Below are positions 1,791 through 5,760 of a stretch of 38,264 nucleotides of DNA, piece by piece (position 1 is the first letter of the stretch; each line of letters opens with the position of its first letter). Below the pieces are notes generated by a model that made no database searches, had not been told where the DNA came from, and was given only the letters and a program-made list of their open reading frames with translations. The DNA is taken from positions 1 through 38,264 of the forward strand of contig CAYRZF010000006.1 of the NCBI GenBank assembly GCA_964428805.1. The letters are read 5' to 3'. This stretch comes from an uncultured bacterium (GTDB lineage Bacteria; Methylomirabilota; Methylomirabilia; Rokubacteriales; CSP1-6). The position numbers and the translations under genes were made by a program.

Positions 1791-2582
1791 GTGCGGTTAC
1801 TGTCCGAGCTCCCCCGGGCCCACAACGCCGTCGAGTTTCTCGACGTTCCGGTCTCCCCCTCGGATCTGGAGGAGAGCCTGAGCGACATCTCGCGGCTCAA
1901 TCGCTACTTCGGGGGCTCGTGGGTGACGCGCTCTCATCTGATCCGGCTCCTGGGCAGACGCCGGGGCGGCCCGGTAACGGTGCTCGACGTCGGGAGCGGC
2001 GGGGCCGACATCCTTGTTCAGCTGGTTCGCTGGGCGCGACGCCGGGGGCGGCGGTTTCGCGTCATCGCCGTGGACCGGGACCGCCAGATCCTCGAGGTCG
2101 CCCGGCGTCGGGCGAGCGCCTATCCCGAGATCTCCTTCGTCCAGGCTGACGGCCTCCAGCTGCCCGTGAGGGTCGGCGGGGTGGATGCGGCGATCTCCTC
2201 GCTGACCCTCCACCATCTGGAGCCCGACGCTGCGCCGCATCTCCTCGCCGAGATGGCGCGGGTCGCCCGGGTCGGATTCGTGGTGAACGACCTGATGCGC
2301 AGCCGTGTCGCCTACGCCCTCGTCTGGCTCGCCACACGGCTCTTCGCCTGGAGCCACATGTCCCGGCACGACGGCCCCCTCTCGGTCCTGCGCGCCTATA
2401 CCTCCGGGGAGATCCGGGCGCTCGCCCGGCAGGCCGGCGTCGGCCGGGTCAGGATCATCCGCCATCCCTTCTGCGTCAGGCTCGCCATCGTCGGGTATCT
2501 CGGAGGGGGGCTCCGCCCCCCTTCCGACACCTCCCCCCTGGGATGGCGCGGGCAAAGCCCGCGCTCGAACGAACGCCAGTGA
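1791..2582 (+). CDS. Class I SAM-dependent methyltransferase
   Basis: VLDVGSGGAD motif I, SSLTLHHL, VNDL, HDGPLSV; GTG start at 1791 just after the PKS stop. The last ~28 codons are repeat-derived. Confidence 0.85.
   Translation: MRLLSELPRAHNAVEFLDVPVSPSDLEESLSDISRLNRYFGGSWVTRSHLIRLLGRRRGGPVTVLDVGSGGADILVQLVRWARRRGRRFRVIAVDRDRQILEVARRRASAYPEISFVQADGLQLPVRVGGVDAAISSLTLHHLEPDAAPHLLAEMARVARVGFVVNDLMRSRVAYALVWLATRLFAWSHMSRHDGPLSVLRAYTSGEIRALARQAGVGRVRIIRHPFCVRLAIVGYLGGGLRPPSDTSPLGWRGQSPRSNERQ
2496..2570 (+). repeat. Double-hairpin dispersed repeat, family 1, copy 1 (inside methyltransferase 3' end)
   Basis: TCGGAGGGGGGC-TCC-GCCCCCCTTCCGA and GCGCGGGC-AAA-GCCCGCGC; 2499-2538 matches the reverse complement of 14676-14715 at 39/40 nt. 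Confidence 0.85.
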
Positions 2583-3796
2583 GCGCGCGTGCGTACGACG
2601 CTGTCGTCGTGGGCGCTGGCCCCGCCGGAAGCGCCGTGGCCATTCTGCTGGCCGAGCAGGGCCATTCGGTGCTCGTCCTCGACAAGGCCGCCTTCCCTCG
2701 CCCCAAGCTCTGCGGCGAGTACCTGAGCCCCGAGGCCGCGCGGATCCTGGATCGGCTGGGCGTGCTCAAGGCCGTGGACGGGGCGGGAGCGGTGCCCCTC
2801 CGCGGAATGCGCATCACGGCGCCCGGCGGCACCGTGCTGGAGGGGAACTATCCGACCGACGGGCCGTTCCGGGGCTACCGCGATCACGCCCTGGCGATCA
2901 AGCGGCTCATCCTGGACCAGATTTTCTTGGAGCGAGTCAAGTCGCTTCCCGTGGACGTTCGCGAGCGGCACCGGGTTGAGGACCTGCTGCTCGAGAGGGG
3001 CCGGGTGGTGGGAGTCCGCGCCGCCGGCCCCGACGGCGCGGCGTTCGAGGTGAGGAGCCCGCTGGTGGTCGGGGCCGACGGGCGGCAGTCGGTGGTGGCC
3101 CGGCGACTCGGTCTGGTCAGGTCGCATGGACTGCGTCGCCTGGCGCTCATCGCCTATGTCGAAGGGCTCGGCGACTTCGAGGGCTGGGGGGAGATTTACG
3201 TGGACCCGCCGGATTACGCCATCTTGAATCCCGTGTCCGCCGGGGTGGTCAGCCTCAGCCTGGTCGTGCCCCTCGATCACGCCACGCCATTTTCGGGGAG
3301 ACTCGAGACCTTTTTCTACGCGCGGCTGAAGCAGCTCGATCGCCTCCGGTCGCGGGTCTCGCGGATGCGCCCGCTCCTCCCGGTGGCAGCGCTCGGCCCA
3401 CTGGCGTACCGGGTCGAGCCGTCCCGCCATGGGGGAGTGCTCCTGGTTGGGGATGCGGCTGGCTTCTACGATCCGTTCACGGGAGAGGGAATTTACACGG
3501 CCCTCCGCTCAGCCGAGCTGGCCGCGGAGGTGGCCCACGGAGCGCTCGCGCGAGGGGACTTCTCGCGCGCGGCGTTGACCTCATACTGGCACGCGCGCCA
3601 CGTGGCCTTCAAGGACAAGGAGCGGGTGACGCGCCTGCTCCAGGTGGTGATTAGACACCGGTGGCTCGCGAACCTCGTGGCCCAGCGGCTGGCCCGGCGC
3701 CCCGACCTCCTGAGTCTCCTGATGGGGGTGATCGGCGACTTCGTCCCGCCCCGCGTGCTGCTCTCCCCGCGGCGGCTGCTCGGCCGTCAGCGCTGA
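2579..3796 (+). CDS. FAD-dependent oxidoreductase, geranylgeranyl reductase / aromatic hydroxylase-like
   Basis: VVGAGPAG Rossmann motif, FPRPKLCGEYL, VGADG, GDAAGFYDPFTGEGI; GTG2579 overlaps the methyltransferase TGA (GTGA). Confidence 0.85.
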   Translation: MSARAYDAVVVGAGPAGSAVAILLAEQGHSVLVLDKAAFPRPKLCGEYLSPEAARILDRLGVLKAVDGAGAVPLRGMRITAPGGTVLEGNYPTDGPFRGYRDHALAIKRLILDQIFLERVKSLPVDVRERHRVEDLLLERGRVVGVRAAGPDGAAFEVRSPLVVGADGRQSVVARRLGLVRSHGLRRLALIAYVEGLGDFEGWGEIYVDPPDYAILNPVSAGVVSLSLVVPLDHATPFSGRLETFFYARLKQLDRLRSRVSRMRPLLPVAALGPLAYRVEPSRHGGVLLVGDAAGFYDPFTGEGIYTALRSAELAAEVAHGALARGDFSRAALTSYWHARHVAFKDKERVTRLLQVVIRHRWLANLVAQRLARRPDLLSLLMGVIGDFVPPRVLLSPRRLLGRQR

Positions 3797-3806
3797 CCCG
3801 GGCGTT

Positions 3807-4271
3807 CTATTCCTCCACGACCTTGCCGTCCCATTCGATGGCGATGCCGCGCTGGACGGACTGAGAGGCGGGGCAACCTTTCTCGTGCACTTCGATGGCA
3901 CGGAGGGCCTCTTCGCGCTTGCCTTTGGGGACCTTGACGTTGTAATGCACCTTGATCCGCGTGATGAGCGGCTTGCCGTCCACGTTCTCGATGAAGCCTT
4001 CCACCTCCGAGGACAGGCGGTCGGGGTGGGTCGGGATCTTCCTCGCCGCTAGCGCCACGGCCAGCGTGCCGGTCATTCAGCCGGCCACCGCAGCGACGAT
4101 GTGGTCAAGGGTGGTTGGAATCTCCTCCTCCGGCTCCACGCCGTAAAACTTTTTGATCCCGCCGTGGACCCCGTATCGGACCGGCTCGGGAAAGGCCTCG
4201 ATGTAGGCCCGGCGGGCTGGGCCCTTGTCCTTGATGATCTTCACCTTGGAGATGTGGATCAGCTCAGCCAT
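3807..4271 (-). CDS. OsmC/Ohr-family peroxiredoxin-like protein with in-frame TGA (probable selenocysteine, U65)
   Basis: ORFs 4077..4271 and 3807..4076 are contiguous in one frame, separated only by TGA (4077-4079) in HIVAAVAG-U-MTGT, the first catalytic Cys position. Second Cys in EKGCPAS; AGGAGG SD before 4271. Confidence 0.8.
4047..4066 (-). promoter_or_regulatory. Candidate bacterial SECIS element
   Basis: Stem CGCUGGC/GCUAGCG with loop CGUGGC starts at the 11th nt after the UGA. Confidence 0.65.
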
Positions 4272-4341
4272 GGGTGATCCTCCTCTGGGGCTGGGGAACC
4301 TACCGGTTTTGATGACCGGTCCTGCTCGGGGGATTCGCCTG

Positions 4342-5760
4342 CTAGCGGGAGCGGCGCGGGCGCGGCGGCGCTGGGGCTGTGGGGGCCCCCTCCGATTGGT
4401 CGCCCTCGATCAGCGCCACGTTCGCCTCGCGCAACGGTTTCAGGATGTGGTCGCGAATCCATCGGGCGTCCCACCACTCGAGCGGTGTGACCGAGATCCC
4501 CCTGATCAGCACTTCGAAGTGCAGGTGGTCGCCGATGGCGAGACCCGAGCTTCCGGTCCGGCCCAGCTCCGCCCCCTTGGCCACCTCCTGTCCCTCCTGG
4601 ACGTCGATGCGCGAGAGATGGGCGTAGAGGGTCTGAAGCCCCAGCCCGTGGTCCAGCACCACGGTGTTGCCGTAGATCGTGAGAGGGCCGGCGAAGACCA
4701 CCGTCCCCCGGTTGGCGGCGGGAACGGGGCTCGCCCTGACCGAGGCCAGGTCGTAGCCGAAGTGGACCTGGGTGTCCACGTCCTGACCGCCGAAGCGGTA
4801 GCTCCGCGTCTCGGCGAAGTTGGAGAAGACCTTGGTGTTCTTCGGCTGGAGGAAGGCGCCCTGCCAGAGCGGCTTCGGCTGGGTCTTGGCCGAGAGGGTG
4901 CGCTTGGCCTCCTCGGCCTGGCGACGCTTATCTCGGTTGATGACCAGAAAGGCTTGGAGCAGCTGATCGGCTGGAACGTTCCCGCGCTCGGGAAGTAGCT
5001 CCGGGAGCTTTCGCTGCAGGAACTCCTCCTTGATGTCCACCGTGTCCCTCGGGAACTTCCGCGGCTTGATCTCGCTGGCGACCGATCGCGAAGCGTCGTT
5101 GCCCGCTTCATCCTGGGCGGTCAGGACGAGCGGTGAGGCGACGGGGAAGTCGTACGGAACCGCGATCAGCGCCACGTGGATCCCGGCGTCGGGCGGTCCT
5201 GCCGGGAATCCCGGGAAGAAGATCCCGCCGAGGTTCACGCCGCTCCTCATCGCCCCCTTCGAACGGTAGACGACGAGCCCGCCACCCCCCTGGGCCAGAT
5301 ACTGGGTGGCGGATAGGAGATCGAGAGTTGGTGGGGTCAGATCCAGCGTGATCGGCTGAGTGAGGATCGGCCTGTCGTCGACTCGAAGCGGCCGCCAGAA
5401 TCCGTCCTTCGCGTACACCTCCAGCGTGGCCCCGCCCTCCCGGAGACCCAGCGAGCGTCCCTCTACGGTGAGGGCCAGCCGGTGCTCGTTGACCAGCGGC
5501 GGCGGAAAGGCCTGCTGGACCACCGTGACCTTCTGGGTGCCTTGGACGAGCCGGAGCTCGAGGGACCGGAGACCCCCGCGCGCCGCGGCCAGATTCAGCG
5601 TCAGCGGGGTTTTGAGCCCGATGAAGCGGGGGCGTGGAAGGAGCTCGGCGCGCACGCCGGGAACCGACTGGCGCCAGGCGAGGTAGGAGACCGCACCGAC
5701 GATGACGACGGAGAGGATCAGCGTGACGAGCAGCCAAGTCTTCCAGCCGGATCGGGACAC
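4342..5760 (-). CDS. M23 family metallopeptidase with N-terminal membrane anchor
   Basis: HFGYD (HxxxD), YGNTVVLDHG, YAHLS, HLHFE; N-terminal TM helix. GTG start at 5760 chosen from promoter position. Confidence 0.9.
   Translation of the reverse strand: MSRSGWKTWLLVTLILSVVIVGAVSYLAWRQSVPGVRAELLPRPRFIGLKTPLTLNLAAARGGLRSLELRLVQGTQKVTVVQQAFPPPLVNEHRLALTVEGRSLGLREGGATLEVYAKDGFWRPLRVDDRPILTQPITLDLTPPTLDLLSATQYLAQGGGGLVVYRSKGAMRSGVNLGGIFFPGFPAGPPDAGIHVALIAVPYDFPVASPLVLTAQDEAGNDASRSVASEIKPRKFPRDTVDIKEEFLQRKLPELLPERGNVPADQLLQAFLVINRDKRRQAEEAKRTLSAKTQPKPLWQGAFLQPKNTKVFSNFAETRSYRFGGQDVDTQVHFGYDLASVRASPVPAANRGTVVFAGPLTIYGNTVVLDHGLGLQTLYAHLSRIDVQEGQEVAKGAELGRTGSSGLAIGDHLHFEVLIRGISVTPLEWWDARWIRDHILKPLREANVALIEGDQSEGAPTAPAPPRPRRSR

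Follow-up and report, generated by a model that had tools for sequence, protein, structure and literature searches.

An OsmC-fold gene of a Rokubacteriales bacterium with an in-frame UGA that very probably encodes selenocysteine

The window, by which we mean the whole stretch of 38,264 nucleotides that was analysed, comes from an uncultured bacterium of the order Rokubacteriales (Methylomirabilota) and carries on its minus strand an OsmC-like gene that appears in the open reading frame listing as two separate pieces (Table 1). The first piece (4271..4077, 64 aa) ends in HIVAAVAG and is followed by TGA, the second (4076..3807, 89 aa) begins with MTGTLAV, and both lie in the same frame, such that translating the TGA as U turns 4271..3807 into one protein of 154 residues. 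The gene lies between a convergent gene for an FAD-binding oxidoreductase and an upstream gene for an M23 peptidase. These neighbours adjoin the OsmC-like gene in only 4 of the 104 homologous loci described below, namely the window locus itself and two close relatives, one of which occurs twice, and the gene context therefore says nothing about function. Scans of positions 3600-4500 found no promoter-like sites and a single terminator-like site, on the plus strand within the gene, which is no more than was obtained with shuffled sequences. The M23 peptidase gene and the OsmC-like gene are separated by 70 nt, and this spacer contains, on the minus strand at 4302-4320, a perfect palindrome, ACCGGT...ACCGGT (stem of 6 bp, loop of 7 nt), that could form a small regulatory or terminator-like hairpin; the only Rfam match at this palindrome was at chance level.

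Table 1. Positions of the features discussed in the text; those prefixed G000 refer to contigs of the genome from which the window derives.
Feature	Position	Strand	Basis
Putative OsmC-like selenoprotein gene, whole	3807..4271	minus	154 codons plus TAG stop; single TGA; Pfam OsmC
Start codon ATG	4271..4269	minus	read from sequence
Stop codon TAG	3809..3807	minus	read from sequence
Shine-Dalgarno GGAGG, 7 nt 5' of the ATG	4279..4283	minus	read from sequence
UGA codon 65, very probably read as selenocysteine; corresponds to first (peroxidatic) Cys of OsmC	4077..4079	minus	Cys alignment; TGA conservation
TGC codon of Cys133; corresponds to second (resolving) Cys of OsmC	3873..3875	minus	invariant in homologue alignment A1; context KGCPASQ
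SECIS-like hairpin, 7-bp stem and 6-nt loop	4047..4066	minus	folding; conservation; bSECIS constraints
FAD-binding oxidoreductase gene, convergent neighbour	2543-3796
M23 peptidase gene, upstream neighbour	5796-4342
Selenoprotein candidates	G000: C1:49042-50250, C8:24637-25359, C21:16208-16675, C23:24102-24512, C24:13553-14923, C25:7357-8925, C26:23550-24515, C27:7442-7786, C30:20387-21004, C34:11737-12339, C34:276-782, C35:19486-20106, C36:16783-17835, C53:8923-9357, C103:2130-3296, C178:1878-2489, C178:497-1000, C43:12551-13363		TGA in Pfam domain
Second OsmC-like selenoprotein candidate (L144), motif LLAALGAUTSIT	G000:C38:1979-2467		NF041052 type

The joined protein matched the Pfam OsmC family (PF02566; cut-off 27.5) with 50 bits, and the matching region, residues 51-147, spans the TGA. 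It scored 33.2 bits against TIGR03562 (OsmC proper; cut-off 85.8) and 16.8 bits against TIGR03561 (Ohr; cut-off 88.85), in both cases below the threshold. With the NCBIfam model NF041052 ('OsmC-related (seleno)protein'; cut-off 95) it gave 23.7 bits, and six relatives (five Sec forms and one Cys form), which represent other members of its own family and its two paralogous clades, gave 17-21 bits in five cases and no match in the sixth. These scores place the window protein outside that model.

An AlphaFold model of the protein (mean pLDDT 75.1) placed residue 65 within a long helix (residues 51-76), the N-terminal 50 or so residues being of low confidence (pLDDT 47-63 for residues 11-50). Foldseek comparison with the PDB gave 1ukk as the best match (E 2.6e-7, probability 1.00, TM 0.54/0.58), and the matches listed at E <= 0.001 were all OsmC, Ohr or OsmC-like/putative redox-protein entries. 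The rmsd was high, at about 11 A, as would be expected when a monomer model is compared with a domain-swapped dimer. When the PDB was searched with a profile built from the window protein and ten full-length homologues, the two active-site Cys of the OsmC proteins 1ukk, 1qwi and 1nye were matched by column 65 (first Cys) and Cys133 (second Cys); in 1ukk and 1qwi, U65 falls on the Cys of AGCF/AACF and Cys133 on that of GCPVS. We take these two Cys of OsmC to be its peroxidatic and resolving residues. The window protein thus has its fold and both active-site columns in common with E. coli and Thermus thermophilus OsmC, but its identity to these Cys-based peroxidases is only about 19-26%, it would carry Sec in place of their first Cys, and it falls short of the model for OsmC proper. 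The original prediction, made from the DNA letters and a list of open reading frames, had described one frame with a lone TGA at the peroxidatic Cys position of OsmC/Ohr and with the resolving Cys retained in GCPAS; the open reading frame listing and the Cys alignment confirm both points.

The codon at column 65 was then followed through homologous loci. A six-frame search of 41 related genomes found TGA in all 24 loci, the window locus included, and a species-wide search with one genome per species found TGA in 77 of 80 loci, the remaining three having TGC, TGC and TGT. Taken together, with each locus aligned to the query, there were 101 TGA, two TGC and one TGT codons among 104 loci, the two sets overlapping in part and the 101 TGA loci comprising 77 distinct 63-nt sequences. 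One of the 24 loci (L027) belongs to G008, a genome that is flagged as unpublished, and it shifts no count by more than one. The 104 loci span at least four phyla (Methylomirabilota/Rokuibacteriota, Acidobacteriota, Nitrospinota and Chloroflexota), and the close orthologues are 80-94% identical over their full length, with conservation on both sides of the TGA. The conservation of the TGA is far beyond chance, and it excludes a sequencing error. The expectation that homologues would alternate between Cys and TGA at this column was borne out, the DNA-verified loci having either TGA or Cys codons and nothing else. Cys also occupies the column in eight full-length database proteins (P0003-P0010), and the Cys-containing homologues are continuous proteins of 154-157 aa.

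A hairpin begins at the 11th nucleotide after the UGA, within the coding sequence. Its 5' arm is CGCUGGC (4066..4060), its loop CGUGGC (4059..4054) and its 3' arm GCUAGCG (4053..4047), all on the minus strand; counting the U of the UGA as 1, positions 14-20 pair with positions 27-33, and the distance from the UGA to the loop is 17 nt. This is the structure that had been noticed initially, a 7-bp stem with a GUG-containing loop, and it proved to be as described. The bSECIS model, as given in PMC13188914, specifies a loop of 3-9 nt with a G in its first two positions, a stem of 4-16 bp, a UGA-to-loop distance of 16-37 nt and a minimum free energy of <= -7.5 kcal/mol. With an energy of -10.1 kcal/mol and a loop in which a U comes directly after the G at position 2, the window hairpin lies within all four published constraints, in agreement with the E. 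coli fdhF type of geometry that was first ascribed to it. Like the fdhF SECIS and bSECIS elements (Zhang and Gladyshev 2005, as presented in PMC13188914), it is a stem-loop in the coding sequence just 3' of the UGA, but it has no sequence similarity to the E. coli fdhF SECIS, and its recognition by SelB is putative. An Rfam scan of positions 3700-4400 at E <= 10 returned no SECIS family and only four matches at chance level. Folding energy by itself was rejected as proof of the hairpin, as 16 of 200 shuffled sequences folded at least as well (z -1.57; the DNA is 66% G+C) and the value is thus not beyond chance.

Among 28 distinct orthologous sequences of the window protein's own clade, 96.9% of the hairpin cells were paired. 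The changes seen in this clade were one-sided only (U-A/U-G and A-U/G-U), none of the seven pairs showing a double compensatory change in the 28 sequences, and in one orthologue (L023) two of the seven pairs are broken and a shifted stem is apparently used instead. At the two Leu positions within the stem, 18 and 20 of these 28 sequences have CUA, a codon that makes up 1.0% of the Leu codons in the long ORFs of the window's own genome; the hairpin is in part maintained by use of this rare codon. In the other clades of the family and in two paralogue groups the hairpin is found in a second register, 9 nt further downstream (positions 23-29 with 33-39), where 97% of positions were paired over 29 distinct sequences and one pair occurred as GC in 22, CG in six and AU in one. 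The two registers are mutually exclusive within the family, a sequence having either columns 14-20/27-33 or columns 23-29/33-39 paired. At the three Cys-form loci, six to seven of the seven positions of the alternative helix are formally pairable, with more G-U pairs; since the helix is weakened in this way and yet can pair, loss of the hairpin in the Cys forms is not clear-cut.

The original prediction implied that selA, selB, selC and selD should be present elsewhere in the genome; of these, selD was found in the assembly. The selD gene (G000:C2:27610-28551; about 1501-2535 in locus L006) scored 348.5 bits against a cut-off of 125 and is interrupted by a single in-frame TGA, which lies within AACAGUASKMGPG; a gene for a LysR-type regulator lies just upstream. 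We take the AACAGUASK site to be the Cys/Sec position of SelD, and by its sequence selD would itself encode a selenoprotein. In the 216-contig assembly of this genome there was no match for selA, the best match for selB had 105.8 bits (cut-off 242) and the best for tRNA-Sec 40.8 bits (cut-off 47). The assembly is rated 98% complete by marker genes, and ARAGORN found only 30 tRNA genes in the whole of it, so that its tRNA set is plainly incomplete. In the relatives, selA and selB were above cut-off in 27 and 25 of 30 genomes, respectively, and adjacent to each other, and tRNA-Sec lay beside them in three of the four loci checked (L018, L019 and L020). As the three genes are clustered in this way, one missing contig would remove them all. 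The cluster was also missing from two other genomes (G008 and G022), though both carry the TGA-containing orthologue.

A genome-wide scan for TGAs with coding-like GC3 on either side gave 150 raw candidates, of which 20 were picked by hand for redox-type motifs and compared with Pfam after translating TGA as U. In 19 of the 20 a Pfam domain spanned the TGA (loci L132-L149 and L151; Table 1). These included five rhodaneses (one fused to ThiF), four AhpC/TSA, two DsbA-like and two CMD/AhpD-like proteins, and single cases of a thioredoxin/glutaredoxin-like protein, a pyridine nucleotide-disulphide oxidoreductase (CxxxxU), a UGSC protein (also above its NCBIfam cut-off), a PCYCGC protein and a periplasmic binding protein, the last two being the least conventional selenoprotein candidates. 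The 19th was a second OsmC-like protein, which gave 50.4 bits with NF041052 over the first 80 profile positions, beyond which a run of N marks a gap in the assembly. The GC3 scan missed both the window gene and selD, and only 20 of the 150 candidates were tested, so the count is a lower bound: the window gene, selD and the 19 candidates give this small genome no fewer than 21 UGA-Sec genes, which agrees with the selenoproteome richness published for Methylomirabilota, as reported in PMC13188914. The larger hidden selenoproteome that had been thought possible is thus found in this genome as redox domains that run across TGAs, and the selD with its UGA together with the many other UGA-interrupted redox genes point to use of selenocysteine by the organism.

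The absence of selA, selB and tRNA-Sec from the assembly could be taken to mean that near-cognate or reassigned decoding places an amino acid without selenium, such as Trp, Gly or Cys, at the UGA, and two database proteins, with Gly (P0002) and Trp (P0011) at column 65, would fit such a reading. TGA stands for Gly under translation table 25 and for Trp under table 4. Because these are the very residues found, both are probably gene-caller artefacts, and both records come from contigs of no more than 1.3 kb. In the window's own genome 433 of 803 long coding ORFs end in TGA, more than in any other genuine stop codon, and the genetic code is therefore standard. Moreover, Cys codons (3 of 104) are the sole sense codons at the column in DNA-verified loci, selD itself carries a TGA at AACAGUASK, and the relatives do have selA, selB and tRNA-Sec. 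Decoding without selenium is in our judgement very unlikely.

Alternatively, the locus might hold two small genes, or a split OsmC, with translation stopping at the TGA (64 aa) and restarting at the adjacent ATG (89 aa). In the window protein's own clade an ATG does directly follow the TGA. The downstream half had been described as lacking a Shine-Dalgarno sequence, which is nearly right, but there is a weak GGTGG 8 nt upstream of this internal ATG. Public records also look this way, 110 of the best 120 database homologues listed being deposited as C-terminal fragments of 89-93 aa. Against this, the codon after the TGA in the other clades of the family is CUG, CUC or CUA (Leu) and no start codon, so that translation could not restart there; the break is crossed both by the OsmC domain and by the predicted helix 51-76; the Cys homologues are uninterrupted; and in 101 loci it is precisely the catalytic Cys column that is interrupted. 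This makes a split gene extremely unlikely. A pseudogene or an error of sequencing or assembly, in which an OsmC gene in decay would have acquired a nonsense mutation, would account for a single in-frame stop that looks fresh, and two related loci may indeed be damaged (L042 and L043, described below). Yet the same codon is TGA in 101 of the 104 loci, which come from at least four phyla, and the protein is conserved on both sides of it, so that this reading has a negligible probability and is effectively refuted.

These considerations leave, as very probably correct, the reading of 4271..3807 on the minus strand as an intact gene of 154 residues for an OsmC-fold peroxidase of the thiol/selenol type, in which UGA65 specifies Sec by means of the downstream hairpin. 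In the model that we infer, for selenium insertion as for the peroxidase activity of this OsmC-like protein, its substrate and its reductant, the hairpin would recruit Sec-tRNA(Sec) and SelB, which would decode UGA codon 65 as selenocysteine. By analogy with OsmC/Ohr, Sec65 at the peroxidatic Cys site would attack the hydroperoxide, after which Cys133, in the resolving role, would join Sec65 in a selenenyl-sulfide, and a cellular reductant would recycle the enzyme.

The databases largely miss this protein in its complete form. The original prediction held that standard annotation would split a Sec/Cys peroxidase-like protein of 154 aa or call its gene a pseudogene, and the 89-93 aa records among the best homologues listed are in keeping with that; where these records carry a name, it is 'OsmC family protein' or similar. 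That the clade lies outside the NF041052 model may explain the fragment records. Between the fragments and the records with Gly or Trp, the active-site residue is missing from the public protein sets. The value of the finding is therefore mainly corrective, in that it concerns a common annotation error, and the enzyme affected is predicted to be a widespread antioxidant enzyme of soil and groundwater. Where UGA recoding is ignored, gene counts and reconstructions of redox metabolism for Methylomirabilota are systematically distorted, and records of the P0002 and P0011 type bring wrong residues into protein databases. With Sec as its peroxidatic residue, an OsmC-fold enzyme would also provide a useful comparison with the Cys enzymes.

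The novelty implied by the original prediction was overstated, as OsmC-like selenoproteins have been in the literature since 2005 and the phylum is known to be rich in selenoproteins. They were reported from the Sargasso Sea (COG1765, motif UxxT, three sequences; Zhang, Fomenko and Gladyshev, PMC1088965), again in the GOS survey of 2008 (PMC2398784), and appear under PF02566 in a 2026 review (PMC13188914), according to which Methylomirabilota have the largest bacterial selenoproteomes, one MAG having 63 predicted selenoprotein genes. As the family is presented in these sources, it has in common with the window protein the Pfam OsmC domain, Sec from an in-frame UGA at the redox Cys position, the existence of Cys homologues and a bSECIS hairpin after the UGA whose small apical loop contains a G. 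The printed motif UxxT (PMC1088965, PMC13188914) is not matched by the window protein, however, which reads U-M-T-G-T, with Thr at +2 and +4 and Gly at +3; it is by this motif and the printed tables, not by its sequences, that the COG1765 family is set apart from the window clade here. NF041052 likewise has the OsmC superfamily and a Sec or Cys at the first active-site position in common with the window protein, but the window family scores closest to true OsmC (TIGR03562, 33 bits) and not to this curated selenoprotein model. Our literature search found no paper on this particular clade, although Deng et al. (groundwater MAGs; reference 66 of PMC13188914) or their supplements may list the gene, and the main text of BSepDB does not mention OsmC.

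The window gene possibly belongs, then, to a separate subfamily of OsmC-like selenoproteins. The fuller proposal, of a distinct and almost obligately Sec-containing OsmC subfamily that is not of the COG1765/NF041052 type and whose SECIS moved between two registers 9 nt apart, is a tentative one, on which we lean slightly towards doubt. If it is true, a shift of register with a nearly constant protein sequence would be a compact natural case of SECIS turnover. In a quickly built tree of 100 distinct sequences, rooted at the midpoint and thus with a root that is not established, the Cys forms were nested among the Sec forms, two changes being needed.

Two further clades of paralogous Sec OsmC-like proteins were seen in relatives from the Methylomirabilota, about 41-47% identical to the window protein. 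One (L032, L034, L035, L042, L043 and L050) has the motifs UMYGTLRG, UMFGTLRG or UMYGTLAG, and the other (L033, L036-L041 and L051) has ULTGTFGG or ULTGTLGG; two genomes (G015 and G022) carry two copies each. Within the first clade, L043 contains an additional TAG and L042 is divergent beyond about residue 130, and these two may be damaged copies or assembly errors.
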